Part shown: in pieces, positions 3,569 to 34,295 of the stretch
Numbering within the stretch: the first letter of the stretch is position 1
How the letters are laid out: each line of letters starts with the position of its first letter
Assembly: GCA_001781105.1 (NCBI GenBank)
Contig: MFKV01000031.1
Span: 1 to 51,922, forward strand
Reading direction: 5' to 3'
Length of the DNA stretch: 51,922 nt
Source of the DNA: Candidatus Kaiserbacteria bacterium RIFCSPHIGHO2_01_FULL_54_36
Lineage (GTDB): Bacteria > Patescibacteriota > Minisyncoccia > Phycocordibacterales > UBA2100
The notes under the pieces: model-generated
Database searches by the model: none
Told to the model about the DNA's origin: nothing
Seen by the model: only the letters and a program-made list of their open reading frames with translations
Translations under genes and position numbers: made by a program

Positions 3569-4024
3569 ATGACAGCAGAAGCGACAGTCCCGTCTTCGCC
3601 CAAGGCTTCGGCGGGCAAGGCAAAAAAGCGCGTACCGCGCGCGAAGACCGTCAAAAAGACGGATGGTGTCACTGCTGTTTCTACACCCGCTCCATCTCGG
3701 ACCAAGAAAGTGGAATCCGCACATCGCCTGCGCATTCGAGTGCGCGCCTATGAGCACGGCGTCTTAGATGGCGCGACCAAGCAGATCATTGATGTTGCCG
3801 CTCGCCACAATGCTGAGGTCATCGGCCCCGTGCCGCTCCCGATAGATATCAAAAAGTACACGGTCAATCGCGCAGCCTTCATCGACAAAGATTCGCGCGA
3901 GCAGTTCGAGATGCGCATCCACAAGCGCATGATCGACATTTTGAATCCCGCACCCAAGGTCATCGAAGCGCTCACCAACATCGATCTTCCGTCCGGTGTT
4001 TCGATAGACGTGAAAATGATGTAG
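3569..4024 (+). CDS. rpsJ: 30S ribosomal protein S10 with ~50-aa Lys/Ala-rich N-terminal extension
   Basis: The C-terminal 100 aa 'LRIRVRAYEHGVLDGATKQIIDVAARHNAEVIGPVPLP...FEMRIHKRMIDI' align with S10. Confidence 0.95.
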   Translation: MTAEATVPSSPKASAGKAKKRVPRAKTVKKTDGVTAVSTPAPSRTKKVESAHRLRIRVRAYEHGVLDGATKQIIDVAARHNAEVIGPVPLPIDIKKYTVNRAAFIDKDSREQFEMRIHKRMIDILNPAPKVIEALTNIDLPSGVSIDVKMM

Positions 4025-4080: not shown

Positions 4081-5808
4081 TTACTCGTGCTTACCAAAGA
4101 GCCTACGAAAACTAAGTGGCGTGAAATATCCCCGCAGCATGTATCGCCACGGCGAAGCTTCGAACATCGCTCGTGCGAAAGAGCCGTCGGATCTTGCCCC
4201 ACGTTGGTTCACAAACATCCGCTTAAATATATCGAAATGCATAATGATGTATTTGTTGCGCTCCAAGAGATCGCGATAGGGGTGCGCGGCGACGTACGCG
4301 TCGGAGATGGTCTCTCCAGCAAGGCGTGAGATGTTTCTCTTGGTGGCCTTGAGGTTCTCCTTCGAGCATAGTTTTTCTCGCACGTGTATATCCACGGGGA
4401 GGTCAAGAGAACGGAACGTTTCGCGCAGAAACGGTTTCTCTTCGTTCGCATCGTACTTCTGCGAGCGAGGTAGTGCGCGCGCGATCGCGAGTATAGCCTG
4501 ATCGGCGAAGGGGAACGCCGGCTCGATGCCGAATCGCATCAGCGCCCGCTCTGTCGAGGGGAAAAGCTGCTGCGGCAGATAATCCTCGATAAAGTGCTTG
4601 AATGCCCACGCGTCGATGTTCTCCGGGCTCTTTGGCATGGTCTGTGTGTACGCGCATACGCGGTCGCCCCCGCCTTCCGGGAGTTGCTCGACGCGCCGCC
4701 GCACGGATCCGAATACTTTTCTGCGCGCAAGGAGTGGCATGCCGAGGAGATCGGCACCCGCACCGCTCATTGCGATATCGACCTTGCCCGCTACGCTTTG
4801 TGCGAGCTTATAAATGGTATTCCTCACAATGGGGTCTTCGTACGTAAAAATACTGTCGACGACATCTTCACATGATGCTGCCGTGTTGATAATGATCTCT
4901 TCGTGTCTTGTGCCCGCATGGCGCGCCACGCTGCGTGCCGCGGTAACGTCGGGGAACAACGCATCGTCGGAGAGTGTGAACGTCTTCAGATCTGCGGCAC
5001 CGGCAACCTTCGCAAGTGCGAGGAGGACACTTGAGTCAAATCCTCCTGAAAGGAGAACGCCGACGGAACCGCCCGAATGCACGTAATGGTTCACGTTGCG
5101 CGCTACTGTTTTCGATAGGAGTTCGCGAAGTTCGCTCTCGTCCGTCGGCAACACTTTTTCACTCGCTCCATACGCGCCGATCTCAAGCGCGATCCCGTTG
5201 TCGCGCGTAGTTGCAACGACATGTCCGCCGGCGGGTACGTGTTTGATACCGGTGAAATACGTCGAGTCGCCCACAAGGTGATCGCGGAAGACGAACCGCT
5301 CGTGGAGACTTTCCCGGTCTATGTCTACCAGAGGCGTGTGCGGTAGGATGGCTTTCATTTCTGATGCAAAGAAAAGAGACTCTCCGCCATTGTGGTAGAA
5401 GAGTGGCCGCACGCCGAGCGTGTCGCGCGCGAGGTAGAGCGAGGAACCTTCGGCTATCGCAAGTGCGAAGTTACCCTCAATATAGCGCGGGAAATCCGTC
5501 CCGAAGGCGCGATACAAGCTCAAAACAATCGCCGTATCGTCGTCAGAATTTGGCGCGTGGCCGGCACTCCGCGCAAGCTCAATGAGCTCCGCTTTGTTGA
5601 ACAGGTCCCCATCGAATGCCACAAGAACCTGTTCGCCGTTTTTTGTGAGAACAGTAGGAAAGTGTTTGAAGTGCGGCAGACGTTGGCCGACTGCTGCAAG
5701 TGCGCCAGAGGCCAAGGATTCTTTTATGCCGCGAGGCGCGAGCGCCGCGGACATCCGAACAAGTGTCTTTTTATCGACATGCCCGAAACTCCCGAATATT
5801 CCCGCCAT
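4081..5808 (-). CDS. asparagine synthetase B-family protein lacking the N-terminal nucleophile Cys (starts MAGIFG)
   Basis: 575 aa. It has an Ntn-glutaminase-like N-domain and the PP-loop 'LLSGGFDSSVLLALA'. Residue 2 is Ala instead of the catalytic Cys. Confidence 0.85.
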   Translation of the reverse strand: MAGIFGSFGHVDKKTLVRMSAALAPRGIKESLASGALAAVGQRLPHFKHFPTVLTKNGEQVLVAFDGDLFNKAELIELARSAGHAPNSDDDTAIVLSLYRAFGTDFPRYIEGNFALAIAEGSSLYLARDTLGVRPLFYHNGGESLFFASEMKAILPHTPLVDIDRESLHERFVFRDHLVGDSTYFTGIKHVPAGGHVVATTRDNGIALEIGAYGASEKVLPTDESELRELLSKTVARNVNHYVHSGGSVGVLLSGGFDSSVLLALAKVAGAADLKTFTLSDDALFPDVTAARSVARHAGTRHEEIIINTAASCEDVVDSIFTYEDPIVRNTIYKLAQSVAGKVDIAMSGAGADLLGMPLLARRKVFGSVRRRVEQLPEGGGDRVCAYTQTMPKSPENIDAWAFKHFIEDYLPQQLFPSTERALMRFGIEPAFPFADQAILAIARALPRSQKYDANEEKPFLRETFRSLDLPVDIHVREKLCSKENLKATKRNISRLAGETISDAYVAAHPYRDLLERNKYIIMHFDIFKRMFVNQRGARSDGSFARAMFEASPWRYMLRGYFTPLSFRRLFGKHE

Positions 5809-5895
5809 GAGGGCATTATTTCATATCATAGGTGAAAGCTGCTATACTCTCATGGGGTGCAAATGCACCAGGACAAAGAAGAGAAGGAGAGCGTC

Positions 5896-6897
5896 GTGAA
5901 GAAAACCATCGCAACTCTCGCGGCGCTCCTGATGCTGTGCACGCAGGGCTTCGCGAACGACATCAGGAGCGTGAAGATCATCGCAGGAGGCCCTGCAGGC
6001 ACCGCGACCGATCTGTACGCGCGGCTGCTTGCGCCGCACCTAAGCGCTCACCTGCCGGGCAGACCCGCGATCGTGGTGGAGAACATGACGGGGGCTGCGG
6101 GGAGGATCGCAGCGGCGTTCCTGATCAAACAGGCGCCAAAAGACGGAAGCGTCATCGGGTCGCTCCCGATGCCGTCGGTCATGGCACCGCTCTACGACGC
6201 CGTGTCACCGGGATATGATTCCCGGTCACTTGTGGCGCTCGGGAGCGCAGACAGCGGAACGCGCGTATGCGCCACGACCGCACGCTCCGGCGTGCGTTCA
6301 TTCGCCGAAGTACGCCGGCGAGAAGTGACCGTCGGGGCTGACGGCTATGGGTCGGCGCGCGACATGTACGCGCGCATGCTCAATCGGCTTGCGGGCGGCA
6401 AATTCAAGATCGTGCTGGGCTACCGCGGTTCGTCGGAGGTCTTCCTCGCCATGGAGCGGGGCGAGATCGACGGCATGTGCGGCATGGAGTGGACGAGCCT
6501 TTCCGCCCAGCGCCCCGCGTGGGTGAAAAACGGAAGCGTCTCGTTCATTCTCCAAACGGGTCCGGCACGCGTTCCGCTTGCAGGATTCGGACCGGTCGCC
6601 GATATGCGGGACTACATGAATGCACGAGATACGGAGGTGGCGGAGTTTATAGTTGCCGAACTCGCACTCTCGCGCTTCTTTGCTGTCGCCGCCGGCGTTC
6701 CCCGAGAACGGCTCGTACTCTTGCGGCGCGCGTTCGAAGCGGCAATGCGTGATCCGGCGCTCCTCACCGAGGCCAAGAAGCGCAATCTCACGACTCGGCT
6801 CGTCAGAAGCACCGATGCCGAGCGCATCCTCAAGTCCATTCTTGAAGTCTCCCCCCGCGTCCTCGCGCAAGCGAAGTGGGCGGTGAGCCGGGACTGA
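5896..6897 (+). CDS. tripartite tricarboxylate transporter (TctC/Bug family) substrate-binding protein
   Basis: 'AGTATDLYARLLAPHLSAHLPGRPAIVVENMTGAAGRIAA' and 'GYRGSSEVFLAMERGEIDG' match TctC/Bug. GTG start at 5896 is preceded by GAAGGAGA and followed by a signal peptide. The ORF track extends it to 5857. Confidence 0.75.
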   Translation: MKKTIATLAALLMLCTQGFANDIRSVKIIAGGPAGTATDLYARLLAPHLSAHLPGRPAIVVENMTGAAGRIAAAFLIKQAPKDGSVIGSLPMPSVMAPLYDAVSPGYDSRSLVALGSADSGTRVCATTARSGVRSFAEVRRREVTVGADGYGSARDMYARMLNRLAGGKFKIVLGYRGSSEVFLAMERGEIDGMCGMEWTSLSAQRPAWVKNGSVSFILQTGPARVPLAGFGPVADMRDYMNARDTEVAEFIVAELALSRFFAVAAGVPRERLVLLRRAFEAAMRDPALLTEAKKRNLTTRLVRSTDAERILKSILEVSPRVLAQAKWAVSRD

Positions 6898-6980
6898 GCG
6901 ACGTTCCAATCCAACTGATCATGCCCGGGGCGCAGCTGCCGGGCATGTTTTTTTGTGCAGGCAGCGCTATAGTATCCTGT

Positions 6981-7535
6981 ATGCTCATCATTCTTGGAGG
7001 ATTTTTGGGAAGCGGAAGGAAGATCTTGTCGCGAAAGATCGCTGAGCGGCATGGTTTGTACTTCTACACGATCGCTGACAAGAAGTTGCACTCGTTCTCC
7101 GTCGCGAAGGATGGCGCGATACACGAGCGCATCCAACGGGCAAAGACCGACGACATGCGCATGCGCATTTACGGTCGCGCTATTGCTGAGTTTCCACGTC
7201 TTCGGAAGATGTATCCCGACGTTATTCTCGAGGATGTGTTCCACCGTGCACGACCGCGCGAATATTTCATTGCAGAGGCGCAGAAATATTTTGATAACGT
7301 GATCTTCGTGTGGATCGAGTCTGATGAAGCGTCGGTCGCCGATCGTCTTGCGCTAATGAAGAAAAAAGGACTTATAGACAGTATCGAGACCTCACTGCAC
7401 CGGAGAAGACGGTCAATGGAGAATTTTGAAGAGCTTAAGCCGGGAACATTGAGCTTTTATCACACGAAAAGCGACGATAGGGCCGCGGAGAGGCTTTGGG
7501 ACCTTATTATGAAGCACGCTGGTGACTCAGAATGA
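6981..7535 (+). CDS. P-loop NTPase/kinase-like protein with deviant Walker A (GGFLGSGRK)
   Basis: 184 aa from ATG 6981. A TATAGT box lies 7 nt upstream. The N-terminal 'MLIILGGFLGSGRKILSRKIAERHG' is kinase-like. Confidence 0.5.
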   Translation: MLIILGGFLGSGRKILSRKIAERHGLYFYTIADKKLHSFSVAKDGAIHERIQRAKTDDMRMRIYGRAIAEFPRLRKMYPDVILEDVFHRARPREYFIAEAQKYFDNVIFVWIESDEASVADRLALMKKKGLIDSIETSLHRRRRSMENFEELKPGTLSFYHTKSDDRAAERLWDLIMKHAGDSE

Positions 7536-8628
7536 AGTCGTTGTCAGGCTCGTAATACACGCTCGGCTCAAGATGCTTGTAAAATCGCATCGATTCATCG
7601 ATGAAATCAAAGTAGATCTGTTGGCGCACGACATTGCGCAGTGAGCCGCGTTTTGTTTTACCGTCACGATAATCGGCGTCCTTGGTGTACGCATAGATGA
7701 TATCTTTGCAGGGCCATTTGTAGCTGTTCCAGGTGTCTTTGATGCGTTTGTCGAGATTATGCATGCTCCACAATTGAAAATCATCTGTGCCGTAGAATGA
7801 GAAATATCGCGTATTCACATACTCCCATGTCACCGCACTCGCATTACGCTCAGGGACACAGGTGAGTATGCGCATAAAGGTGTTTTGCCACTTCAGCGAG
7901 AAATTTATCCACCACACGTACGCGAGGTAGCTGCGTATGGGCACCGGCGAGGCCGACATGAGCTTATCGAAAAGATCGAGGTAGAGGTTCGTAATGCCTG
8001 CGTCTTTTGCTATCTCGTTGAAAAAGGTGAACAATACATCGCGCTCATACGGCCTGTGGATGATCTCTTCGCCAAAGCGACGCATGAGGCGCCCCACGGC
8101 TCCGGAGCCGAAGACCTGGTCGTTTTGCTCGCCGCTCACCGTAATGCAGTCCTCTCCGAAGAGATAGGGGTACATCATCGTCGACGCCCGGTCCAATTTT
8201 CCCGCGATGTGATCAGCATAGAAACGAGGATTCTCGGCGATGGATTCATCTGTGAGTAGCACGGTGATGCGTTTTTTCTCCTGTGTAGAAGCCTCCTTGA
8301 GCAGTGAGATCAATACGAGCGTGCTGTCGATGCCGCCAGACCAAAATACATAGATGCGCGTATCAAGTGCCTTTGCGCGAGAGAGAAGATCGCGCGCTCG
8401 TTCATTGCAGATCTCCTCGAATGTCTTTTTGAAAGGGCGCAACTCCGGAATCGGGAAAACGACCGCAGTCCTAATGGGAGTACGTATGGTCCCCGTCCGA
8501 TCGATCGGCACTATTCCGGGCTTAAATAAAGGTCCGAAATACGTGAAGGTAGCCATTCCTGGCAGTACGATATTCTCCGGACGCTTGAGGATGGTCGCGT
8601 TGTACTGGATAAAGCGCGACGCGGTCAT
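7507..8628 (-). CDS. PP-loop (adenine-nucleotide alpha-hydrolase) superfamily protein, unknown specificity
   Basis: 373 aa with an SGGxDS motif in 'RIYVFWSGGIDSTLVLISL'. The rest is unrecognised. Its start overlaps the upstream stop by 4 nt. Confidence 0.6.
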   Translation of the reverse strand: MTASRFIQYNATILKRPENIVLPGMATFTYFGPLFKPGIVPIDRTGTIRTPIRTAVVFPIPELRPFKKTFEEICNERARDLLSRAKALDTRIYVFWSGGIDSTLVLISLLKEASTQEKKRITVLLTDESIAENPRFYADHIAGKLDRASTMMYPYLFGEDCITVSGEQNDQVFGSGAVGRLMRRFGEEIIHRPYERDVLFTFFNEIAKDAGITNLYLDLFDKLMSASPVPIRSYLAYVWWINFSLKWQNTFMRILTCVPERNASAVTWEYVNTRYFSFYGTDDFQLWSMHNLDKRIKDTWNSYKWPCKDIIYAYTKDADYRDGKTKRGSLRNVVRQQIYFDFIDESMRFYKHLEPSVYYEPDNDFILSHQRAS

Positions 8629-9368
8629 GTTAGTTGAGAGGAGTAAGAATCGATCTTTAACTGCTTCATGATCGAAGGGATCTGCGCGGGCTCGCTTGCC
8701 TCTCTCACGAGGTCGAAGTATTTCAGGCGCAGTAATTCAGTTTTTGCGAGATATCCGTCATCGAGCTGTGCCCGAAAAAGGATATTATCCGCCGCCTCTT
8801 TGAACGATATGCTGGCGAGATCGGCATACTGGACCACGTACGGGATCTCCATCACCATCTTCTGATCGTAGTTTGCGTCTTTGAACGCCTGTGCCTGCAT
8901 CCGTTTTATCAGGTAGACAGACTCCTGGAGGGTCATATCCGTGCGCATCGGCTGCCGCAGCGTATTGATCGTGTTGATGATCTCTGCGATCGCACGGCAT
9001 TTGGCCGTCGCAAGGCGTGAGCGCGCTCGAAGCTCGACTGTCACATCGTCGGGTTTTCGCGCAGAGAACCTCCGCTCTTTTTTGTTCCATTCCCACTCGG
9101 GATAGTACTCTGGGTCGCTGCGTGCAAGAAAAAACGGCTCATCGTGTATGAGCGAGGAGCGGTAGTGCGGACTATTTACTCCGAGTTCCCACATCGAATC
9201 CGGCGTGCACTGATGTACGAAGAAACTTGCGGAAACGCCGGGGCTTAGGGTAAGCACAGCACTCGAGTGCAGATCAAGGACAGCATTCCATCGCGCCATA
9301 TTCTCACTATAAACCAATAATACGAACGCGGAACTTGCAGTCTTACTTCTCGTATCCTGTAATGTCAC
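8625..9368 (-). CDS. hypothetical protein (middle gene of a three-gene coupled operon)
   Basis: 247-aa ORF with 4-nt overlaps to both neighbours. No recognisable motifs. Confidence 0.5.
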   Translation of the reverse strand: MTLQDTRSKTASSAFVLLVYSENMARWNAVLDLHSSAVLTLSPGVSASFFVHQCTPDSMWELGVNSPHYRSSLIHDEPFFLARSDPEYYPEWEWNKKERRFSARKPDDVTVELRARSRLATAKCRAIAEIINTINTLRQPMRTDMTLQESVYLIKRMQAQAFKDANYDQKMVMEIPYVVQYADLASISFKEAADNILFRAQLDDGYLAKTELLRLKYFDLVREASEPAQIPSIMKQLKIDSYSSQLT

Positions 9369-11050
9369 GCGCGCTCGACGCAGTAGATCTCATTTGCGTG
9401 CGTCGGAATGAAAAAACGCTTCGTTCGCGGGTTATATACAACACGATTGGTGATGCGCTCCGACATCGCTAGATACGAGCGCTCTTCGCCAGTCCTCGGA
9501 TCGAGTTCAGTGCATCGTCCGGTATTCGCGCCGATGAAAATGCTCCCCTCGATCAGGGCCGGAGAGGCGAAGATGCGAGCACCACCGTACCAGCGCCACT
9601 TTTCTTTGCCACTTTTGATGTCGAGCGCATATACATATTTATCGAGAGACCCGATATATGCGGTGTCGCCTACAATAAGCGGCGTCGAGTAGAATCCGGC
9701 GCCGGCGCTAAAAACAGCGCGCTCTGTACCGCGCGTGCGGTCAATGAAGTACACGCGACCCGCGATAGTGCCGAAGACAAGGACATCATGCTGCTCCGAA
9801 TATGCGAATGACTCCTTAATATCATTCTTGCCGAAACCTGCGTCTGACTTTTCTCCTGGTACCATCGTATCGAATTTCCATACGAGTGTGCCGCTTTGCG
9901 CATCAAAGAGGTACGCGCTACCATCATTGGAGCCGATCACAACCTGCCGGTGCATTGGTATATAGAGGGGAGATGAGTGCGTATACAGAGGCATAGAATA
10001 GCCCCATTTTTTCTTTCCCGTCTTGAGATCGAGGGCGACGATGCCGCCACGTTTGCGCCATAGTCCGAATTCAAGGCCGACGAAGAGGAGGCCAAGATCC
10101 TCTGCGATCGCGGGCGAGGAGCCGACCCAGTCGGCCTCGTAGGAGATCCATTTTCGATTTCCAGTCTTTGCATCGAGCGCATAGACGTTGCCGTCGTAGG
10201 CCCCGAAGTAGACGACACCGTCGTGCACGGCTGGGGAAGAGAATATACCTTTACCTTCTGGATGGAAGCCGACACGATACGACCACGCGACACTCCCGTC
10301 TTCCTGCCGAAGGCCCCACATTACGCCATCGTCACTGCCCATGTATACGTTCTCCTCATCAATAGCGGGATCTGATTTGGGGACAACATGGAAAAAAGCG
10401 GGTTTGCCGCTCTCAAACTTCCACAGCATGGTGAAGCTACGTGTCGGCATTTTTTTCTCACCGACGACGAGGTTCTTCGTGCCGAGCGTTGCGGTGAAAT
10501 CATCGAGCGTAAAAAGCGAGATAATAGGGATGTTCTTATCCTTAAAATACGCATAGTACTCCTCGTCTCTGAAGCGAACCAAGATCCAGATCGCGTCGAC
10601 CCTGTGCCCCTGCGCTTCAAGCACCTCCACCTGCCGCACGAGGCTTTTGCCGCTGTTCATGAGATCGTCAACGAGTACGATCTTCTCCGTGGAGAGAGTG
10701 CCCTCGATCGTCTTCATAAGGCCGTCTTTCTTTCGACCCTTTCGTATGAAAAATCCAGTGGTGCCTTTGGGTCCCGCTGCGATCAATGCGGCGGCAAGCA
10801 GTGCGCCGGCCGTCTCAATGCAGCCGATCTGTATGCGCCCTCGCTCGCGCAGTGTCTGCCAAAAGAGTGCCGCAACATCCTGCATCACGTCGTGTCGCAG
10901 GAGAATATTTCGAAGATCAAAAAGCCACCCGCTCTCCCGTAGCTCTCCTTTTGGCGAGACGATATGGGCATCGGAAGCGCGCACGAAGGCCTCTGCCTCG
11001 ATCTTTTTCTTCAGGCGCTCTCGCGACTTCTTCAGATCTGTCGCACGCAT
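9365..11050 (-). CDS. fusion protein: OPRT-like phosphoribosyltransferase domain + PQQ-like (BamB-type) beta-propeller
   Basis: 561 aa. The N-terminal part has the PRPP loop 'KIVLVDDLMNSGKS'. The C-terminal ~350 aa have repeated 'G.VYALDAKTGN.KW' propeller blades. Confidence 0.7.
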   Translation of the reverse strand: MRATDLKKSRERLKKKIEAEAFVRASDAHIVSPKGELRESGWLFDLRNILLRHDVMQDVAALFWQTLRERGRIQIGCIETAGALLAAALIAAGPKGTTGFFIRKGRKKDGLMKTIEGTLSTEKIVLVDDLMNSGKSLVRQVEVLEAQGHRVDAIWILVRFRDEEYYAYFKDKNIPIISLFTLDDFTATLGTKNLVVGEKKMPTRSFTMLWKFESGKPAFFHVVPKSDPAIDEENVYMGSDDGVMWGLRQEDGSVAWSYRVGFHPEGKGIFSSPAVHDGVVYFGAYDGNVYALDAKTGNRKWISYEADWVGSSPAIAEDLGLLFVGLEFGLWRKRGGIVALDLKTGKKKWGYSMPLYTHSSPLYIPMHRQVVIGSNDGSAYLFDAQSGTLVWKFDTMVPGEKSDAGFGKNDIKESFAYSEQHDVLVFGTIAGRVYFIDRTRGTERAVFSAGAGFYSTPLIVGDTAYIGSLDKYVYALDIKSGKEKWRWYGGARIFASPALIEGSIFIGANTGRCTELDPRTGEERSYLAMSERITNRVVYNPRTKRFFIPTHANEIYCVERA

Positions 11051-11141
11051 TCAGCCAGTATACGCGGATAGCCGCGACACGGGAATTACTCCTCGTAGTA
11101 TGAGGCGGAATGTGCGCACGCCTCGTGATACACTTTTTTTG

Positions 11142-12350
11142 ATGAGAATCCTCATGATCGGGAAATATCCACCTATCGAAGGAGGTGTTTCTTCGCATAT
11201 ATATTGGCTTGCGCGGGGCTTAGGCGAAGCGGGTCATGAAGTCTCAGTAGTCACGAACGCGGGACGTGTCGAGGAGGACTACCGCATTTCTCTAGATGTA
11301 TCCGATCCCGAGTACCGGCCGAGGAACGTTTCGGTCTTCTCTCTCACGGATGCGCCGCCGCGTCACATACCTTTTTCGGAAGGATATGTGACGCGTCTCG
11401 TCGCCCTTGGCCTTCGCGCGATCGAGAAGAATGGCGCCGACGTCATCTATGCGCACTATCTTGAGCCCTATGGCGTCGCCGGACTCCTTCTGAAGCAACT
11501 AACCGGACTTCCGCTCGTCGTTTGCCACGCCGGGAGCGACATCTATAAACTTTTCAAGCATACGGACTATTCATATGTGCTCGGAAGGATCCTTCAAAGC
11601 GCGGATATCGCACTCATGTCTCACTCGCTTTTTGACGTTGCCAATGCGTTAGGGATCCCTCAAAAGCGCTTGCGCGCCATCCCTCCGCGCTCGCGCCACC
11701 CCGCATTCTCGCCGGAGGGGAAAGGTTTTGAGTTCCCGCACGGCTGGGCAAAAAAAGGAGTGCCGATCATCGTCTATCTCGGAAAAGCATCAAAACACAA
11801 GGGATTGCTGGAACTCTTGTCGGCGCTCGCACAAAGCACAAATGATTTTAGGCTCATGTTCGTCAGCAAAGGGCCGCTGTTGAAGGACATTCAAGAGAGG
11901 ATCGCGCGCAGCGCAGCGCTGAGAGAACGTGTCATGCTCTCGGATTTCATCCCGCCCTGGCGCGTGCCATCCCTTTTACGTTCGAGCGATCTACTCGTCC
12001 AATTAGAGAACCGGTTCCCCATCCCCATACATGGGCCCGGTCAGCCCGCTGAGGCGATCGCGTGTGGGACGCCGCTTCTCCTCTCGGAAGAGATGTATAA
12101 GAAACTTGAGCACTCATTCCCGCGCGGGCGCGCACAGTTCTCCATCGTGCCGGATCCGCAGGATATCGACGAGCTGCAGCGCGTCTTGAACGGCGCTCTC
12201 TTTGATCTTCCGCATGCGCGAAAAATCGCAGCGCCAGCCACTGAAGAGATGCACGCAACGAACGATTGGGATGCCTATGTCGCTACACACGTCGAGATAC
12301 TTGAGGATGCGATACGGTCTCGATCACTCCTCCGTATGTTTCGACACTGA
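11142..12350 (+). CDS. GT4-family (GT-B) glycosyltransferase
   Basis: The protein starts 'MRILMIGKYPPIEGGVSSHIYWLARGLGEAGHEVSVVT'. The long N-terminal extension in the ORF track (from 10647) is antisense to the PRTase gene and is rejected. Confidence 0.75.
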   Translation: MRILMIGKYPPIEGGVSSHIYWLARGLGEAGHEVSVVTNAGRVEEDYRISLDVSDPEYRPRNVSVFSLTDAPPRHIPFSEGYVTRLVALGLRAIEKNGADVIYAHYLEPYGVAGLLLKQLTGLPLVVCHAGSDIYKLFKHTDYSYVLGRILQSADIALMSHSLFDVANALGIPQKRLRAIPPRSRHPAFSPEGKGFEFPHGWAKKGVPIIVYLGKASKHKGLLELLSALAQSTNDFRLMFVSKGPLLKDIQERIARSAALRERVMLSDFIPPWRVPSLLRSSDLLVQLENRFPIPIHGPGQPAEAIACGTPLLLSEEMYKKLEHSFPRGRAQFSIVPDPQDIDELQRVLNGALFDLPHARKIAAPATEEMHATNDWDAYVATHVEILEDAIRSRSLLRMFRH

Positions 12351-12447: not shown

Positions 12448-12687
12448 ATGCGCCTTATCAGCACTCTCGTGATCGGCGCCGCCTTGGCGGTGGCTCCGAC
12501 GTTCGTCAGTTCGCCGGTCCATGATTCCGGCGCGTTCGCCCAGATGGGGGGCAAGAAGAAGACAGCGAAGCCGCCGTCCAAGCCCAAGCCCAAGAAGACC
12601 TACGCCGAATGCCAACAGGAGGCGATCGACCTCGGCGGCATGGGCAGGGGCATGGGTGGACTCATGAGGCGCTGCCTGGGTGGCTGA
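12448..12687 (+). CDS. small secreted Lys-rich protein with a PsiF-like C..EA..G......CL unit
   Basis: 79 aa. AAGGAGGA lies 5 nt before the ATG. Signal peptide 'MRLISTLVIGAALAVAPTFV', then 'KKTYAECQQEAIDLGGMGRGMGGLMRRCLGG'. The gene looks GC-rich by eye. Confidence 0.55.
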   Translation: MRLISTLVIGAALAVAPTFVSSPVHDSGAFAQMGGKKKTAKPPSKPKPKKTYAECQQEAIDLGGMGRGMGGLMRRCLGG

Positions 12688-12775: not shown

Positions 12776-13660
12776 TCATCCACCTCGGCTATTCCTCGCG
12801 GATCCGACGAGCCTAGAGGATTCCACAATTTGTTTTGCACGCCGGAGGTCCTTCATCACGAGGTCTTCGAACTCTTCCCCGAAGTTCTCGTCGCGTTCGA
12901 TGATGAGCGCGCGGATATTCGCATGCATCGCAACGTACTCGAGAAGAGGCCAGACGCCCTCGTTGTCGCCCGAGATGCCCTGTGAATGCGAATCATAGAA
13001 AACACCCTCATGTATCTCGCCGCCGGCAAGGTGTATGTGCACGAGATTTTGGAGGGGATACTGCCGCACCAGCTGCATGGCGTCTTTCTTCTGATTGAAT
13101 GCATTAATAAAGACGTTAGTTACGTCGAGAAGGAGGCCGCAGCCAGTTTTTTCGCAGACGCGCGAGATGAATTCCGGCTCTTCGTAATCGGCCTCGGGGA
13201 TGGTAAACGGGGCGGTGATATTCTCAAGGACGAGCGGCTTGCCGATGAATTGCTGTATCTGGTCGACACGGCTGCACACATGCGCAAGCATTTCCTTGGT
13301 GAACCAGAGCGGCGAGAGATGGCCGATATCGAGCATGTCATCGTCGTGGGTAAGCGCGTAGTGGTCGCTGTAGTAGTAGGCACCCACATCATCGGTAAGC
13401 CATTTCATATCCCTAAGGTATTGCTCCGGTATCGGGGAGGCAGAGCCGATGGAGAGTTTGATGCCGTGCGGAATAACGCGGAAATAGGACTTCGCTTTTT
13501 CCAGGTATGCGATATTTCTCGCGATCCTGTCAGAGAAGAACTTATCGGAAATGATCTCCACGGTGTCTATCTCTCTGCTCCGCGCAAACGTCTCATCGGA
13601 GATGTCGCTCCGGAGGCCTATGCCGCATCCGATATAGGGGATTTTCGCGAGCTCGTGCAT
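12776..13660 (-). CDS. DUF692/UPF0276 (MbnB/TglH/ChrH/BufB-type) TIM-barrel iron enzyme
   Basis: Conserved blocks HGIKLSIGS, SDHYAL, LVLENIT, LLLDVTNVFINA, VHIHLAGG, YDSHSQG and IIERDEN. ATG 13660 lies 4 nt after the upstream stop. The ORF-track start at 13717 is rejected. Confidence 0.85.
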   Translation of the reverse strand: MHELAKIPYIGCGIGLRSDISDETFARSREIDTVEIISDKFFSDRIARNIAYLEKAKSYFRVIPHGIKLSIGSASPIPEQYLRDMKWLTDDVGAYYYSDHYALTHDDDMLDIGHLSPLWFTKEMLAHVCSRVDQIQQFIGKPLVLENITAPFTIPEADYEEPEFISRVCEKTGCGLLLDVTNVFINAFNQKKDAMQLVRQYPLQNLVHIHLAGGEIHEGVFYDSHSQGISGDNEGVWPLLEYVAMHANIRALIIERDENFGEEFEDLVMKDLRRAKQIVESSRLVGSARNSRGG

Positions 13661-13664
13661 ACAA

Positions 13665-14141
13665 TTAAATAAAGACGCTTCGGCCCGCGAGGCCGCGTCC
13701 GTACATAAGTTTTGCAACGCGAAAGAGATCGCCGAGGCTTGCGCGACCGAGCCTTCCGTACGCGCCGAGCAGTGAGGTCATTGAGAGCACCCCCCGATGT
13801 GCATAGATATCGCGCACAAGACGCGCGATATCCACAGAGATGGGAACGACGATCGGGTCCTCCGGCGCACCCCACACGAGTGCCGGCGAATCCTTCCAGA
13901 AAGGCATTAAGACGACGTAGTCGGTCCTCTTGAGGATCATTTTTGTCCTGCCTAAGCGCTTTCCGCGCAGATCTTTCTGGAAATGTCCGAGTTGCTCCAC
14001 AGGGAGGCCTCGGATCGCGCGCCGCTCCTTCTCGGTGAGTGAAAAAGGGGCAAGTACGCGCTCGGGGTCTCGCTCAAAATCCTTTAGGAGCGATTCGCTC
14101 GTGTAGAGGTTGAGAAGTGCGCGCTGAAAGTCGTAGAGCAT
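13665..14141 (-). CDS. small partner protein of the DUF692 enzyme (MbnC/DUF2063-like by position only)
   Basis: 158 aa, translationally coupled to the DUF692 gene. 'LYTSESLLKDFERDPERVLAPFSLTEKERRAIRGLPVEQL' is helical. Family not confirmed. Confidence 0.5.
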   Translation of the reverse strand: MLYDFQRALLNLYTSESLLKDFERDPERVLAPFSLTEKERRAIRGLPVEQLGHFQKDLRGKRLGRTKMILKRTDYVVLMPFWKDSPALVWGAPEDPIVVPISVDIARLVRDIYAHRGVLSMTSLLGAYGRLGRASLGDLFRVAKLMYGRGLAGRSVFI

Positions 14142-14200: not shown

Positions 14201-14524
14201 ATGTCTTCGCTCCCGCTTCTCAAGAGGGCCAGGCGCGTAATCAAGAGCGTCCTTGCCATACTGCTCGTCTCGATCGGAGCATTCATCGGCTTCAGTATGC
14301 AATCGCTGCGCTCGCTTGCCGGTTCGGCGCAAGAAAAAACCTCCACCGACAATGCGCGCATTGGCGCTGCCGCAGGGCTTCTCGGCACCCCTCGTGCGCA
14401 TGCGGATGTCGTTGACCCAAGCGGAGGCGATTCCCCCCCCGACCCTCTTGGCTGCGGATGCAATTGCAGTGAAGGAGGTGGTGACGGCGGTAGCGGCGAT
14501 GGTGACGACGGTGATGGCGGCTGA
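14201..14524 (+). CDS. candidate RiPP precursor: signal-anchored peptide ending DPLGCGCNCSEGGGDGGSGDGDDGDGG
   Basis: 107 aa from ATG 14201. Basic N-terminus plus the hydrophobic segment 'VLAILLVSIGAFIGF'. Three Cys codons at 14453-14467. The stop lies 2 nt before the next gene. Confidence 0.55.
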   Translation: MSSLPLLKRARRVIKSVLAILLVSIGAFIGFSMQSLRSLAGSAQEKTSTDNARIGAAAGLLGTPRAHADVVDPSGGDSPPDPLGCGCNCSEGGGDGGSGDGDDGDGG

Positions 14525-14526
14525 AT

Positions 14527-15576
14527 ATGACAACGCGCACTAGTTTACTAGCCGGGATTGTAGTCGTAGTCGTTCTTATAGGCGGAGCGGCATATTGGTG
14601 GCATAGCCAGTCCGCGGTGGAGCGTATTCTTGAGAGTCGCAGCGAAGGCGACTACGAAGAAGCAATCTTCGAAGCGGAACGGATCCAATCATCCGTATTC
14701 ATCCCCGCCGACGAAAAAGCGCTCGCGACCATCAATACGACGGCTCTTCGCTATGAGCTCTCGGGCAACGTCGAGGACGCGCTAGAGAGTATACGCGAAC
14801 TAAAAGGTATCGCAGGGGACGCCTCACTCTCCGCATACGTCCGTGCCGCAGCGCAGAATACGATCGCTCTCTGGTACCAGAACACGGGTAACGACAAGGC
14901 AGTTTTCGAAGAGATATTTAAAGATATGCCGTACAGTCAATACCTCGTCCCTACGAATCGTTCCGAGTCGATCCGTAATCTTCAGGTCGAGATCTATAAG
15001 AGCTATCCAAACGCACGCGACGGAATGACCATCGCCGGCAACTTTATGAAAACCGCATACAGCAGCGGCCGGAGTTCTACGAGAACCCGTCTTCTAGATA
15101 GCGCCCAAACATACCTTGTTGAAGCTCAAGCGCTGCTCGCAGAGGAGGGGGAAGGGGACAAAGCGTCCCAGTCGTACGTGGCTACGAGGTATTGGGAAGC
15201 GTATACCATTGGTGGCCTTGCTAATTTCGGTCGCGGAGATTACCGCAGCCAGTACCAGCAAAAATACGAAGATCTTCTATCGTTCTTGAAGAACGAGGGC
15301 GGATTCGACCAGAAGCGCTGGATCCCGATCACACTGTGGCGGTACGGCGTGTTCACGATGATAGTTCACAACGACAATGAAAAAGCTCGGGCCCTTTTTA
15401 CCGAGGCGGTACAGGCGATAGGAACCACCCCGACACCACAATCGAGTAATCTCGTTGCGCTGCTCAAGTCTTTCAAGGAGGAAAAAGAGAATGGCAATAC
15501 GAGCCGCGGAGTAAGGCATTTCGACCGCGCGGCAGCCTTATCACCGGAATTCAAAGCACTCGTCGACGGCATTTGA
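14527..15576 (+). CDS. N-terminally anchored all-helical repeat protein
   Basis: 349 aa with TM segment 'LLAGIVVVVVLIGGAAYWW'. No recognised family. It overlaps the next gene's start by 4 nt. Confidence 0.5.
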   Translation: MTTRTSLLAGIVVVVVLIGGAAYWWHSQSAVERILESRSEGDYEEAIFEAERIQSSVFIPADEKALATINTTALRYELSGNVEDALESIRELKGIAGDASLSAYVRAAAQNTIALWYQNTGNDKAVFEEIFKDMPYSQYLVPTNRSESIRNLQVEIYKSYPNARDGMTIAGNFMKTAYSSGRSSTRTRLLDSAQTYLVEAQALLAEEGEGDKASQSYVATRYWEAYTIGGLANFGRGDYRSQYQQKYEDLLSFLKNEGGFDQKRWIPITLWRYGVFTMIVHNDNEKARALFTEAVQAIGTTPTPQSSNLVALLKSFKEEKENGNTSRGVRHFDRAAALSPEFKALVDGI

Positions 15577-16394
15577 GCATGTCGTTCTTTGCGTGGGTGC
15601 GCGCGAAGCATAAGCGTGCCAGCGTTTTCCTTGCAACGATCGTGGTGCTCTGCCTCGTGCTTTTCGCATTGAATCCAATTGTCGTCACATACGAGCGCTC
15701 AGCGCTCGCACTGTTTCCCTCCGCTGAGCGCGCATTTTCATACGGGTCGCGTCACCTCGACTATGCCCACCCCTCTCTCTACAGCATCGACGACGCGGCG
15801 TATTTTTACCAAAAAGCCGCCGCACTCGACGCGGAGTACCCGTATGTGCACCATCAGCTTGCACGCATCTCGTTCTTGAAAGGGAATTTCCTACTTGCAC
15901 TCATCGATATCAATAAAGAGATCGAGATGTACGGAGACCAGGAACCAAACACGTATTACATCCGCGCGCTCATCAACGGCTACCGCGGCGACTACGCTGC
16001 TGCGGCATATGATTACGAGCGTTTTCTTGAAGTGTACCCGACGAACTGGGCAGCGCTAAACGACTACGCATGGGTCCTTCTGAAAGCCGGCGAACATGAG
16101 AGGGCGCGCGATGCGGCACTTCGCGGCCTTGAGTATTTTCCGGAAAATGCCTGGCTCTTGAATTCGCTCGCAATTGCTCTCTATGAGCTCGGGGAATATG
16201 AGGATGCACACGACGCTTCACAAAAAGCCGCTACCGCAGTGGCGCGCGTAAGCGAGTCTGAGTGGTCGCATGCGTATCCGGGCAATGACCCTGCTATTGC
16301 AGCGGAGGGACTTACCACGTTCAAAGGAGCAGTCGAAAAGAATATGCACATGATAGAAGAACGGAGAATTTCCAGCGTGGTAGAATCAAAATGA
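15573..16394 (+). CDS. membrane-anchored TPR-repeat protein
   Basis: 273 aa with an N-terminal TM segment. TPR-like 'AAYFYQKAAALDAEYPYVHHQLA', 'YERFLEVYPTNWAALNDYAWVLLKAGEHERA' and 'GLEYFPENAWLLNSLAIALYELGEYEDA'. Confidence 0.7.
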   Translation: MSMSFFAWVRAKHKRASVFLATIVVLCLVLFALNPIVVTYERSALALFPSAERAFSYGSRHLDYAHPSLYSIDDAAYFYQKAAALDAEYPYVHHQLARISFLKGNFLLALIDINKEIEMYGDQEPNTYYIRALINGYRGDYAAAAYDYERFLEVYPTNWAALNDYAWVLLKAGEHERARDAALRGLEYFPENAWLLNSLAIALYELGEYEDAHDASQKAATAVARVSESEWSHAYPGNDPAIAAEGLTTFKGAVEKNMHMIEERRISSVVESK

Positions 16395-18335: not shown

Positions 18336-18402
18336 GTAACTATGAACCCCGTTAGAAGTAACGGGATACGGGTTGGGAAATCAAAATGATTCAATAAAAC
18401 GT

Positions 18403-19029
18403 ATGACAGAGAAAACTTCTAACGGGGTGAAATTCATGCTCGCAACCAAGGGCCGTATGACGCAAGTCTTCGACGAGAAGGGGACTGTTGCCGCTGCCAC
18501 AATTCTTACTGCAGGGCCCCTTATCGTGACCCAGCTCAAGAGTGCCGAAAAAGACGGCTACGCAGCAGTACAAGTGGGGTTCCGCGCCAAAAAAGAATCT
18601 CGCGTCAACAAAGCACAAAGTGGCAAGCCATTTCGAGTGTTCCGCGAATTCTCGCTCGAAGCATCCTCGCAGCCAGAAGCTGCCGCTTCCATTGACGTGT
18701 CTATCTTTACGCCGGGCGACATCGTCGCGGTATCAGCAACTTCAAAAGGAAAAGGATTTCAGGGCGTCGTAAAGCGCCACGGATTCCATGGGGGCCCGAG
18801 AAGCCACGGACAGAAGAACAGGGAACGCTCTCCCGGCTCTATCGGCGGCGGCGGCCGTGCAGGCGGGCGAGTCGTCAAAGGCATGCGTATGGCAGGCAGA
18901 ATGGGAAATGAGCGCATCACGGTAAAGAATCTAAAAGTCTTGCAAGTGGATGTAGCCTCCAATACACTCGTCATTTCCGGCGCTATTCCTGGCTCACCGG
19001 GGACGCTTGTCGAGATCAGAGGAAATTGA
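18403..19029 (+). CDS. rplC: 50S ribosomal protein L3
   Basis: 'KFMLATKGRMTQVFDEKGTVAAATIL...' and 'KGKGFQGVVKRHGF.GG..SHG' are L3 signatures. The start is uncertain (18403, 18427 GTG or 18436). Confidence 0.93.
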   Translation: MTEKTSNGVKFMLATKGRMTQVFDEKGTVAAATILTAGPLIVTQLKSAEKDGYAAVQVGFRAKKESRVNKAQSGKPFRVFREFSLEASSQPEAAASIDVSIFTPGDIVAVSATSKGKGFQGVVKRHGFHGGPRSHGQKNRERSPGSIGGGGRAGGRVVKGMRMAGRMGNERITVKNLKVLQVDVASNTLVISGAIPGSPGTLVEIRGN

Positions 19030-32896: not shown

Positions 32897-32935
32897 ATGT
32901 ACTTAAAGGCACCGACCGGATGTGATAAGTACATA
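32897..32935. promoter_or_regulatory. 39-nt palindromic repeat, copy 2, upstream of the purD promoter
   Basis: The stem ATGTACTTA/TAAGTACAT is perfect. It ends 24 nt before the TGgTATAAT box at 32959-32967. Confidence 0.7.
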
Positions 32936-32974
32936 CCCTATATAGAAAAGATAACTCTTGGTATAATCGCAGCA

Positions 32975-34252
32975 ATGGATGTTTTGGTTGTTGGTAGTGG
33001 TGGGAGAGAGCACGCGCTCGCGTGGAAACTGAAGCAGTCTCCACGCATTGGCAAACTTTATATAGCGCCAGGAAATGGGGGGACGAGCACCCTTGGAGAA
33101 AATGTACCAATCGGCCAAATGGAGTTTGAGAAACTCGCTCAGTTCGCGCAAGAAAAGAAGGTCGGCCTTACTGTCGTTGGCCCCGATGATCCGCTGGTTG
33201 GCGGTATCGTTGACGTATTCAAAGCCCGTGGACTCCGCATCTGGGGGCCGAGCCGTGAGGCGGCACAGATCGAAGGCTCGAAAGCATTTTCAAAGCAATT
33301 CATGCACGAAGCAAAGATCCCGACAGCGGAATTTGCGGTGTTCTCGAACGCTGCGCTAGCACTCGCGCATGTGCGCGTGAAAGGAGCGCCTATCGTGATA
33401 AAGGCGAGCGGATTGTCGCTAGGAAAAGGCGTCTATGTCTGCAGAGATCTTACTGAGGCTGAACGAGCGATCACGGAAATAATGGTGGAGCGCGTGCACA
33501 ACGATGCGGGAAATGAAGTCGTTATCGAAGAATATCTTGACGGGCCTGAAATATCTATCCATGCGCTAACCGACGGCTACTCTCATATACTTTTTCCCGC
33601 TTCCCAGGACCACAAGCCAATTGGCGACGGAGATGTTGGAGAAAATACCGGCGGTATGGGGACGATCGCGCCGGTGCCGTGGGTAACGCCCGAGATGATG
33701 TCGAGCGTGGAAGGGCAGATCGTTACGCCGACGTTTGAAGCCCTCAAGAAAAATGGCATTCAATTCCAGGGCCTGCTCTATCCCGGGCTCAAGGTAACGC
33801 TCGGCGGCTTGGAAGTTCTTGAATACAACGCACGCTTTGGCGATCCGGAGACGCAGGTGTACATGCGTCTTCTGAAGACGGATCTTCTTGATCTTCTCGA
33901 AGCGTCTGTGGACGGAACTATCGATGCCCTGCGCACGAAGATCGAGTGGCATCGTGGTTTTGCAGCCAATATCGTCATCGCCTCCGGTGGCTACCCGGGC
34001 GAGTATAAAAAAGAATTGCCAATCACTGGTATCGAGGATGCAGAAAAGGTGGAAGGCGTCGTGACATTTCACGCGGGAACGAAGATAGAAAATGGGCAAG
34101 TAGTAACCGCCGGCGGCCGCGTGCTGGGAGTCTCGGCAATCGGCGGCACGCTCAAACAAGCGCTCGATCGCGCATACGAAGCCGTAGGCGAGATCTATTT
34201 CGAGGGTATGTACTTCCGCCGCGACATCGGCGCGAAGTCTCTTTCCGCCTGA
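32975..34252 (+). CDS. purD: phosphoribosylamine--glycine ligase
   Basis: 'MDVLVVGSGGREHALAWKL', 'GPDDPLVGGIVD' and 'LEYNARFGDPETQ' are PurD-like. ATG 32975 lies 7 nt after an extended -10 box. Confidence 0.95.
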   Translation: MDVLVVGSGGREHALAWKLKQSPRIGKLYIAPGNGGTSTLGENVPIGQMEFEKLAQFAQEKKVGLTVVGPDDPLVGGIVDVFKARGLRIWGPSREAAQIEGSKAFSKQFMHEAKIPTAEFAVFSNAALALAHVRVKGAPIVIKASGLSLGKGVYVCRDLTEAERAITEIMVERVHNDAGNEVVIEEYLDGPEISIHALTDGYSHILFPASQDHKPIGDGDVGENTGGMGTIAPVPWVTPEMMSSVEGQIVTPTFEALKKNGIQFQGLLYPGLKVTLGGLEVLEYNARFGDPETQVYMRLLKTDLLDLLEASVDGTIDALRTKIEWHRGFAANIVIASGGYPGEYKKELPITGIEDAEKVEGVVTFHAGTKIENGQVVTAGGRVLGVSAIGGTLKQALDRAYEAVGEIYFEGMYFRRDIGAKSLSA

Positions 34253-34295
34253 CAACGTAGGGAGGAGAGCTCTTTTGTGGGCTATAATTACGTTC

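Follow-up and report, generated by a model that had tools for sequence, protein, structure and literature searches.

We analyzed three adjacent minus-strand genes of a bacterium of the candidate phyla radiation (CPR), here called g1, g2 and g3 in their order of transcription (g1 first, g3 last), on contig MFKV01000031.1 of Candidatus Kaiserbacteria bacterium RIFCSPHIGHO2_01_FULL_54_36. The whole stretch of 51,922 nt, hereafter the window, was examined computationally, with an open reading frame (ORF) scan and with comparisons of profiles, folds and loci. The reading that we favor, with slightly less than even confidence, is that the three genes are two modules lying side by side in an island, specific to CPR, by which rpsJ and rplC are separated. 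In this reading g1, a phosphoribosyltransferase (PRTase) fused to a beta-propeller, belongs to a locus of the type that produces ribosomally synthesized and post-translationally modified peptides (RiPPs), and g2-g3, a PP-loop enzyme with its partner protein, form a portable pair. An original prediction made from the letters alone had proposed a translationally coupled operon of all three genes that combines an enzyme using phosphoribosyl pyrophosphate (PRPP) with an adenylating PP-loop enzyme. Its observations are partly confirmed and its interpretation partly supported: the domain logic was right, and the three-gene operon and the co-conserved trio were wrong.

Starts and junctions of the three genes

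The ORF scan recovered the three minus-strand frames as first described, at 9365-11050 (561 aa), 8625-9368 (247 aa, GTG start) and 7507-8628 (373 aa). The stop codon of g2 and the start codon of g3 share 4 nt (ATGA), and a comparably tight junction (-4 to +8 nt) is present in the related loci L001, L003 and L004. An equal overlap had been claimed for g1 and g2; it exists only if g2 begins at GTG 9368, a start that is unsupported and probably unused. The 13 aligned g2 homologues begin at the residue that corresponds to M24 of the 247-aa ORF, and public gene calls for g2, taken from 19 contigs, are 224 or 189 aa long and in no case 247 aa. Further, residues 1-23 are disordered in the AlphaFold2 (AF2) model (pLDDT < 50), and a TATAGT box lies at 9306-9311 (minus strand), 6 nt 5' of the ATG at 9299. 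From its sequence, g2 most likely starts at this ATG and encodes 224 aa (8625-9299, minus strand). Because of the homologue starts, the gene calls, the disordered N-terminus and the TATAGT-N6-ATG signal, we place a 65-nt spacer between g1 and g2 and assign g2-g3 a start signal of its own. Thus, g1 most likely forms one unit and g2-g3 a second one; the proposed translational coupling holds for g2-g3 and fails for g1.

The start of g1 is preceded by a similar signal, a -10-like TATACT box at 11057-11062 (minus strand), exactly 6 nt before the ATG, as had been noted. The pattern TATAnT-N6-7-ATG occurs at 16 sites in the window, 14 of which open ORFs of at least 80 aa, compared with 24% of all ATGs. 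No sigma-70 -35/-10 pair was found in 6800-11300. Both units probably give leaderless transcripts, to judge from these signals. Starts of this type occur throughout the window (for example at 11050, 9299, 6981, 17743, 30471, 32975, 34296, 42656, 44115, 44732, 45941 and 47859), which suggests that leaderless transcripts are widespread in this genome. The signal is of practical use for annotation, as it mends start codons: it gives corrected starts for g2, for the kinase gene convergent with g3 and for the ORFs at 30390, 32897, 34275, 42718 and 45911.

The PRTase-propeller protein and its neighbors

The product of g1 (561 aa; 9365-11050, minus strand; PF00156, PF13360 and PF13570), which has relatives of 38-58% identity in CPR loci, carries a type I PRTase domain resembling orotate phosphoribosyltransferase (OPRT) at about residues 38-190 (10481-10939), followed by a PQQ/BamB-type beta-propeller of roughly 8 blades at about residues 203-560 (9371-10444). 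This fusion had been read correctly, as had the lack of a signal peptide, the N-terminus being the hydrophilic PRTase domain. PF00156 (Pribosyltran) matched residues 53-157 with 31.6 bits (gathering cutoff, 26.3). The domain has a PRPP loop (IVLVDDLMNSGKS; also recorded as KIVLVDDLMNSGKS) and an OPRT-type flexible loop (RKGRKKDG...IEG), and it aligns with human OPRT (2wns, E 2.3e-8) over both loops. R103, K104, R106, K107, E116, G117, D128, D129, N132 and G134 are invariant in 13 relatives (33-56% identity). The propeller was matched by PF13570 (Beta-prop_ACSF4, 6.2e-44) and PF13360 (PQQ_2, 5.5e-35). It scored well below the BamB equivalog (102.8; cutoff, 285.2) and PQQ alcohol dehydrogenase (66.3; cutoff, 480), and its PDB matches were the Cake8-10 designs and BamB, with the generic PQQ-repeat propeller fold alone in common. 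These features point to a cytoplasmic enzyme that combines a propeller with a PRPP site that is OPRT-like and intact.

The PRTase domain alone would also suit a PRPP- or nucleotide-sensing regulator or scaffold with a PurR/PyrR-like fold, or the organism's own PyrE in fused form, so that g1 would not be a pathway enzyme. PurR is among the PDB matches (E 0.004), propellers are typical protein-interaction platforms, and the best family match is pyrE (TIGR00336, 4.6e-15). The pyrE score of 55.8 bits is, however, far under the equivalog cutoff of 106.8, and both the fusion and its position in a YcaO-SagB operon are kept across 37-58% identity. The conservation of all catalytic residues fits sensing and catalysis alike. 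We consider a non-enzymatic or PyrE role very unlikely.

To characterize the surroundings of g1, we scanned metagenomes with an alignment of its PRTase domain and found at least 282 relatives, from which 80 loci were kept (56 after dereplication); a word-indexed search with the PRTase domain alone returned two matches and was uninformative. A recurring map was observed, with two tetratricopeptide repeat (TPR) genes and a small ORF on one strand and, divergent from them, genes for YcaO, SagB and g1 on the other. The YcaO-SagB-g1 genes are co-directional; their junctions overlap or abut in L131, L172, L174 and L184 (in L131, the SagB-type gene at 9276-10028 overlaps g1 at 10025-11662), and L163 has a 36-nt gap. 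The YcaO proteins of these relatives matched PF02624 (7e-49) and the TOMM (thiazole/oxazole-modified microcin) model SagD (209 bits), and their SagB proteins exceeded the TIGR03605 cutoff (103.6 bits; cutoff, 78.4). This azole-forming pair was present in about 40% of the related loci sampled. In the 12 g1 loci flanked by 6 kb or more on either side, YcaO/SagB occurred in 8, TPR genes in 11 and g3 in 1. The TPR families, c5 and c6, were also found in 11 of the loci collected with g3 as the seed.

Neither g2 nor g3 follows g1 in this way. g2 is directly downstream of g1 in one of 30 dereplicated g1 loci. Among g3-seeded loci, g1 lies within 10 kb in about 16, and a contiguous g1-g2-g3 order was seen in L009, L011, L012 and L019; L184 carries YcaO-SagB-g1-g2-g3 as one string. 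The trio, whose lack of co-conservation or assignment to a known pathway was to count against the original prediction, is therefore not co-conserved elsewhere, g2 and g3 being the two that keep together. The other half of that test went the opposite way: as had been stated, no described pathway fits the combination, and searches of Pfam, NCBIfam, PHROGs, PADLOC, the PDB and the literature gave none. We conclude that g1 is a facultative neighbor of g2-g3, and that its primary partners are the precursor-like gene, the TPR genes and the heterocyclase pair.

The small ORF of the recurring map belongs to a precursor-like family, which a pattern search found in 44 loci (14 g3-seeded, 29 g1-seeded and the window) and in none of 80 viral loci. 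Its members have an N-terminal hydrophobic segment, a motif A[HYN]A-D[VA]P that resembles the AxA site of signal peptidase, and a Gly/Asp/Ser/Cys-rich tail of 20-80 residues that is extremely rich in Asp (for example, AHADAPSCGIGCGFSCGGGCGGGCGGGDGGGCGGDGDGDGGGCGDCCGG in L184). Of 27 dereplicated loci, 14 have such an ORF upstream of g1 at a distance of no more than 5 kb, and 8 of these 14 have no YcaO/SagB. These counts are lower bounds because the search pattern was strict. A 67-aa ORF between YcaO and g1 (L003 and L004) was considered as a precursor and rejected, as it is a small membrane protein and is not Cys/Ser-rich.

Two further gene families recur near g1 in CPR loci and are missing from the window: PaaK/CapK-like adenylate-forming ligases, whose best NCBIfam match is the DVU_1553 family, and a Cys-rich, membrane-anchored protein of about 400 aa (c8). 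Loci with the ligase or c8 include L003, L004, L016, L017, L161-L164, L168, L170, L179 and L183.

On this evidence g1 would be a standing member of a RiPP-type locus, together with the small protein with a Sec signal (AHA-D(V/A)P motif) and the two TPR proteins. The propeller may dock the peptide or a partner enzyme, and the PRTase domain may spend PRPP on modifying the peptide or on making a building block for it. YcaO and nitroreductase genes have been described in linear azole-containing peptide (LAP) clusters of 93 further CPR genomes (Sharrar et al., 2020; PMC7298704); a PRTase-propeller as the third gene of the operon is mentioned neither in the accessible part of that paper nor in the other literature found. 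The context of g1 would thereby add a PRPP-dependent enzyme and a family of acidic, signal-peptide-bearing precursors to the azole-peptide clusters known in CPR, and the locus is a well-defined and expressible candidate for a new kind of peptide modification.

The g2-g3 pair in bacteria and phages

The product of g3 (373 aa; 7507-8628, minus strand) is a divergent PP-loop ATP pyrophosphatase with an architecture like that of AsnB-type synthetases, according to the AF2 model and Foldseek. Its PP-loop, S97-G-G-I-D-S-T103 (8320-8340, minus strand), was compared in 93 full-length CPR and viral sequences: S97, G98, G99, D101, S102 and T103 are at least 97% conserved and I100 is 85-97% conserved. 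R44, the PP-loop, D170, W239, F278, Q285, W287 and K304 are universal; Cys74, the sole well-conserved Cys, is present at 85-97% and is not universal. In the AF2 model, made from a deep alignment (pLDDT 94.5), the PP-loop follows a strand at 92-95, as in the PP-loop superfamily. Foldseek placed g3 with PP-loop enzymes at a probability of 0.9-1.0. The full-length model gave weak matches to ASNS/AsnB, TsnB9, beta-lactam synthetase and carbapenam synthetase (E 2e-4 to 7e-3), and the core alone matched LarE with similar E-values.

Sequence profiles were less informative. No Pfam match was obtained for g3, nor any usable PDB match by sequence or profile, and NCBIfam gave only TIGR03104 at E 0.0089 over 77 residues. 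No PHROG model covers g3; a QueC-like PHROG matched only the 23-residue PP-loop (E 0.0032). Against PF00733, nothing was found at E <= 0.01, and the N-terminal 85 residues showed no match to a glutamine amidotransferase (GATase) domain, so that membership of the AsnB family was not indicated by sequence. The statement that g3 has SGGIDS and is otherwise unlike QueC, NadE and TilS was borne out, with a likeness to AsnB at the level of the fold. As candidates, QueC, NadE, TilS, MnmA and ThiI were rejected, as they gave no Pfam or NCBIfam match and none is among the top 50 Foldseek matches. A LarE-type sacrificial sulfur transferase was rejected since C74 is not kept throughout the family, and sulfur transfer of the LarE or MnmA type is disfavored for the same reason. 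Close paralogy with a second PP-loop family (c12/cl9) was dismissed as well, since hhalign joins the two over the 47-column PP-loop alone. From the non-universal Cys and the analogy with AsnB-type enzymes we infer that the chemistry of g3 is adenylation of a carboxylate followed by amide formation.

No motif had been recognized in g2, and none emerged: it has no match in Pfam, NCBIfam or the PDB by sequence, profile or fold. Its AF2 model (pLDDT 81) gave a best E-value of 0.37 in Foldseek against the PDB and matched uncharacterized phage proteins in BFVD (template modeling (TM) scores, 0.68/0.80). No polar column is invariant among 34 CPR and phage members, and g2 is probably an adaptor rather than a catalytic protein for this reason. 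Weak BFVD matches to DUF4376/tail-fiber-assembly proteins were not upheld, as the 34 members showed no recurring family against Pfam; hhalign detected no relation between g2 and viral cluster 15. The families of g1, g2 and g3 are unstudied, and the distinctive part of each has no Pfam or PHROG model.

The g2-g3 module can be pictured as follows. The two proteins would be made by translational coupling from a leaderless-type start of their own; g3 would bind ATP at the PP-loop, adenylate a carboxylate and hand it to an amine to form an amide, by analogy with AsnB, beta-lactam synthetase and NadE; and the fast-evolving g2 would most likely be a non-catalytic specificity or adaptor subunit.

A scan seeded with g3, with one genome per species, gave 28 loci. 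Nearly all are from CPR, and the rest are metagenome-assembled genomes (MAGs) of Bdellovibrionales (2), Burkholderiales (1) and Lewinella (1). Names attached to g3 relatives of about 50% identity include Paceibacterota, Kaiserbacteria, Moranbacteria and comparable groups. g2 is directly upstream of g3 in nearly every bacterial locus with upstream DNA (exceptions, L006, L013 and L032), and paralogous g2-g3 pairs often occur two or three per locus (three in L004). The g3 profile found at least 1,782 representatives at 50% identity clustering, 684 of them at E <= 1e-30. A scan of IMG/VR with the g3 alignment found at least 488 stretches, with relatives at 30-44% identity; 80 of these loci were kept, and the viral counts rest on them. 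A g2-family gene is directly upstream of 62 of the 99 viral g3 genes, and profile searches join two viral clusters to CPR g2. Fusions of g2 with g3 were absent from 150 representatives, where the sole informative fusion was g3-GNAT (one representative). Thus, g2 and g3 form an obligate pair that is very widespread and that, as a portable module, bacteria share with phages.

The viral contigs with g3 also encode an endonuclease (GIY-YIG, SegE-type) and an adhesin resembling gp38; ORFs for RNase H, PhoH and ribonucleotide reductase were recognized on them by eye. Among INPHARED isolates, only Pseudomonas phage Cygsa01 matched g3 (24.6% identity), and a phage-derived g3 query and a g2 query found nothing there. 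In Cygsa01 (L034; PP179332.1, 11421-13570), two genes are labeled tRNA 2-thiouridylase MnmA; the label on the g3 relative is probably wrong, because only the wider PP-loop family is in common. A larger block surrounds g2-g3 in the phage loci L044-L047, L063-L065, L080 and others. It comprises a second PP-loop/AsnB-like protein (about 311 aa), an uncharacterized 212-aa protein, a membrane protein resembling fatty acid desaturases, a B12-binding radical SAM protein and a cupin; in some cases an SSF-type transporter or an NMNAT-like gene is added.

Bacterial and viral loci have in common g3, g2, a cupin, an SSF-type transporter, the second PP-loop protein, an S-adenosylmethionine (SAM) methyltransferase and one PRTase of the g1 type that stands alone. 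The cupin (218 aa) occurs in 34 viral loci, mostly right downstream of g3, and the Bdellovibrionales loci add a carrier protein and methyltransferases. The accessory genes of g2-g3 (transporter, cupin, methyltransferase and GNAT) favor a small-molecule substrate. A peptide substrate is possible, given the Asp-rich peptide nearby and the five-gene string of L184; as a general rule in phages it was rejected, since Gly-rich neighbors were found in just 7 of 80 viral loci.

The neighbors of g2-g3 also bear on the suggestion, made in the original prediction, that the genes serve a nucleotide- or nucleobase-like metabolite, which stays a live rival for g2-g3. In its fullest form a carboxylated N-heterocycle or similar compound would be imported by the SSF symporter (in relatives) or the TctC-like protein (in the window, 5857-6897), phosphoribosylated by g1, amidated by g2-g3 and phosphorylated by the convergent AAA_18 kinase. 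The PRPP site of g1 is intact and OPRT-like, and the PP-loop chemistry of g3 fits a NadE-like logic (nicotinate to NaMN to NAD). The SSF transporter is a neighbor of g3 in 14 bacterial loci, and its orthologue is encoded in phage loci, some of which have an NMNAT-like gene and the second, NadE-like PP-loop protein; in one viral locus, the lone PRTase of the g1 type lies 3 kb away from two g2-g3 pairs. The kinase recurs near g3 (L003, L010, L012, L020, L025, L027 and L030). However, it is absent from viral and g1-seeded loci, neither it nor g2-g3 tracks g1, and g1 and g2-g3 are seldom together (1 of 30 and 1 of 12 loci). Up to three paralogous pairs per locus would be odd for one salvage step, the propeller is left with no role, and the SSF family matched no NCBIfam subfamily and no PDB entry, hence no substrate class. 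A single salvage or tailoring pathway is unlikely in our view, though it deserves serious consideration.

The three genes might instead be one functional unit for a peptide, with g2-g3 amidating or cyclizing Asp or C-terminal carboxylates of the secreted peptide of g1, much as a lasso cyclase or a beta-lactam synthetase would, and g2 recognizing the peptide. The core peptides are extremely Asp-rich, and AsnB-type enzymes are established RiPP cyclases (the C proteins of lasso peptides). L184 has the precursor and YcaO-SagB-g1-g2-g3 in one block, a precursor-like ORF is directly divergent from g2 in L001/L015 and L020, and the ORF right upstream of g2-g3 in L038, a viral locus, ends in a tail rich in Gly and Asp. 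Against this, g2-g3 is abundant in phages and in MAGs of Bdellovibrionales and Lewinella from which the precursor family is missing, and the precursor and Gly-rich counts in the 80 viral loci are as low as given above. Further, neither a lasso-type B protease (of the transglutaminase type) nor a RiPP recognition element (RRE) was found in g2 or its neighbors, and a lasso peptide system (A/B/C) was rejected on that ground. We regard a single peptide pathway as distinctly unlikely; any hand-over of a product from g1 to g2-g3 would be a supposition.

Under the two-module reading, g2-g3 is one of few enzyme modules common to CPR bacteria and uncultivated phages, both of which live off other bacteria, and its substrate could expose a scavenging or remodeling step common to the two. 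A bolder version would have g1 carry out a PRPP-dependent modification (phosphoribosylation or attachment of a ribosyl-linked group) of a Sec-exported Gly/Asp/Cys-rich RiPP, an unprecedented class across Paceibacterota that is interchangeable between YcaO-SagB and MNIO heterocyclases; g2-g3 would be a new two-subunit PP-loop amide ligase, shared by phages and ultra-small parasitic bacteria, that remodels an imported metabolite. Taken as a whole, this proposal seems to us rather improbable.

The rpsJ-rplC island and related systems

The genes for uS10 and uL3 are adjacent in most bacteria. In the window, rpsJ (uS10, 3569-4024) and rplC (uL3, 18373-19029) are about 14.3 kb apart and the trio lies inside the resulting island, a placement that recurs in the CPR loci L011, L012 and L014. 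The window also encodes uL2, SecY, FtsH, PurD and tmRNA, and it is chromosomal in view of these ribosomal proteins, SecY, FtsH, PurD and tmRNA. From rpsJ to rplC, the island holds genes for an AsnB-like protein, a TctC-like protein, the kinase, g3, g2, g1, a GT4 glycosyltransferase, an MNIO enzyme, a precursor-like protein and TPR proteins. Outside it, a 952-aa protein with TraG/VirD4-type coupling motifs (TraG-D_C, T4SS-DNA_transf) is encoded at 34275-37133 (plus strand), directly after purD (32897-34252), and the tmRNA gene lies at 47004-47349 (minus strand; tag peptide, ANKAFAPSYALA).

The convergent P-loop kinase gene (6981-7535, plus strand; 184 aa; weak AAA_18/AAA_33-like Pfam matches) overlaps the 3' end of g3 by 29 nt (7507-7535), as had been observed. 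Its TATAGT-N7-ATG signal and the 184-aa gene calls place its start at 6981 rather than 6876. A pattern scan marked a weak terminator-like hairpin right after the g3 stop codon, within the kinase gene (7471-7486, minus strand; a 5-bp stem, then TTTTCGTGTG). The TctC-like solute-binding protein (5857-6897, plus strand; weak, 22.5 bits) adjoins the kinase and is unusual for a CPR genome. The AsnB-like amidotransferase (4081-5808, minus strand) is full-length (GATase and Asn_synthase) and matched phrog_16728 (9.5e-48); its NCBIfam scores are below every cutoff, and against the lasso cyclase model it scored 93, far from the 525 required. Since all related loci lack it, the gene seems to have been added to the island in this lineage only.

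Upstream of g1 and divergent from it is the GT4 gene (11169-12350, plus strand; identified by Pfam, with no tblastn match in related loci). Beyond it are the MNIO (MbnB/BufB-like) RiPP maturase and its 158-aa partner (12776-14141, minus strand). The maturase matched PF05114 (9.1e-68, 228.8 bits) and, below the cutoff of 310, MNIO_BufB (1.4e-56, 191.7 bits); the partner had only a weak NHLP-clan match (24 bits; cutoff, 40). Divergent from this pair, the precursor-like protein (14201-14524, plus strand) has an N-terminal membrane/signal segment, the motif AHA-DVV and the tail ...PLGCGCNCSEGGGDGGSGDGDDGDGG, and ends ...AHADVVDPSGGDSPPDPLGCGCNCSEGGGDGGSGDGDDGDGG; TATCAT lies 7 nt before its ATG. 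It is followed by the two TPR genes (c5 and c6; 14527-16394, plus strand; Pfam TPR), which are conserved beside the precursor gene in relatives. A 79-aa signal-peptide protein with two Cys (12448-12687, plus strand), convergent with the MNIO gene, is a second candidate precursor; both candidates were picked out by inspection. The order in the window is therefore precursor-like ORF and TPR genes on one side and, divergent from them, the partner and MNIO genes, the inverted GT4 gene and then g1-g2-g3. The MNIO pair occupies the place of YcaO-SagB, since its position matches that of the pair in L131, L163, L172, L174 and L184. YcaO/SagB and MNIO enzymes both act on Cys residues of precursor peptides, and the two pairs appear to be interchangeable at this position. 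Related loci have no MNIO, GT4 or AsnB-like gene, and a TctC gene was seen in L150 alone.

The island also bears on the proposal of a nucleotide-targeting anti-phage defense module. PADLOC gave g1 a weak PRTase_III-A match (E 0.0019), and the adjoining GT4 protein just passes PF20706, "GT4 in conflict systems" (28 bits; cutoff, 26). Yet PADLOC-DB v2 returned nothing for g2, g3, the kinase, the AsnB-like protein or GT4; the surroundings encode no nuclease, TIR, SIR2 or other effector; and phages themselves carry g2-g3 in hundreds of contigs. Moreover, the genes do not sit in a variable island: their place between rpsJ and rplC is core DNA with conserved synteny. A defense function is scarcely credible.

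Several observations weigh against the two-module reading. The window, in which SSF, CapK-like ligase and second PP-loop genes are also absent, lacks the azole-forming YcaO-SagB pair that was found in relatives. The surroundings of g1 are strongly syntenic within one clade, and its adjacency to these genes could reflect inherited gene order, not function; further, none of the literature found describes a PRTase that acts in RiPP biosynthesis. Foldseek supports an AsnB-like fold of g3 weakly (TM about 0.3). The genes near g2-g3 (SSF, cupin, SAM methyltransferase, the GNAT fusion and the NMNAT-like gene) suggest small-molecule chemistry, and Gly-rich proteins near viral g3 are rare. Transcript evidence was sought, and the window sequence was present in groundwater DNA metagenomes alone.

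Among known systems, the loci of relatives come close to TOMM/LAP clusters such as those of microcin B17 and SagBCD: they have a SagD-type YcaO, a SagB dehydrogenase and a Gly/Ser/Cys-rich precursor, of which the window has the precursor-like ORF alone. They differ in that their precursors are very acidic and have, at the N-terminus, a signal or anchor with an AxA-D site, and no E1-like C protein was seen. The window itself recalls the MNIO/bufferin system (BufA-BufB-BufC), with BufB as the best family of its MNIO enzyme and Cys-bearing candidate precursors with Sec signals. However, the BufB score is under the cutoff, the partner is not a recognizable DUF2063 protein, the precursor gene is divergent and not upstream in the same operon, and related loci have no such MNIO.

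With PyrE, a type I PRTase, g1 shares the VLVDDxxNSG PRPP loop and the RKxRKxxG...EG flexible loop, and its N-terminal domain aligns with human, Aeropyrum and M. tuberculosis OPRT; unlike PyrE, it falls far short of the equivalog cutoff, is fused to a 360-aa propeller and has relatives in a YcaO-SagB operon, not a pyr operon. NAD salvage (nicotinate PRTase, NMNAT and NadE) likewise pairs a PRTase with an amidating PP-loop enzyme, and some phage loci of g2-g3 have NMNAT-like and NadE-like genes. Nevertheless, g1 is type I and OPRT-like, not type II, g3 has no NadE match, and g1 and g3 do not co-vary. LarE resembles g3 in its PP-loop core, and it acts on a phosphoribosylated carboxylate (a nicotinate mononucleotide derivative), which fits a PRTase upstream; only about 130-180 columns align with g3, however, and LarB and LarC are absent.

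The comparison with AsnB, beta-lactam synthetase, carbapenam synthetase, TsnB9 and the lasso cyclase is the one on which our picture of g3 draws. g3 differs from these enzymes in having no N-terminal nucleophile (Ntn) glutaminase domain and no PF00733 match, in its low TM score, in a unique N-terminus of 85 residues, in a C-terminal half rich in Trp and Lys, and in its obligate partner of about 220 aa, g2, whose fold is unmatched in the PDB. It resembles them in the SGGxDS motif, in a Rossmann-like core with a helical C-terminal domain and in the chemistry expected of it, adenylation of a carboxylate and then formation of an amide.

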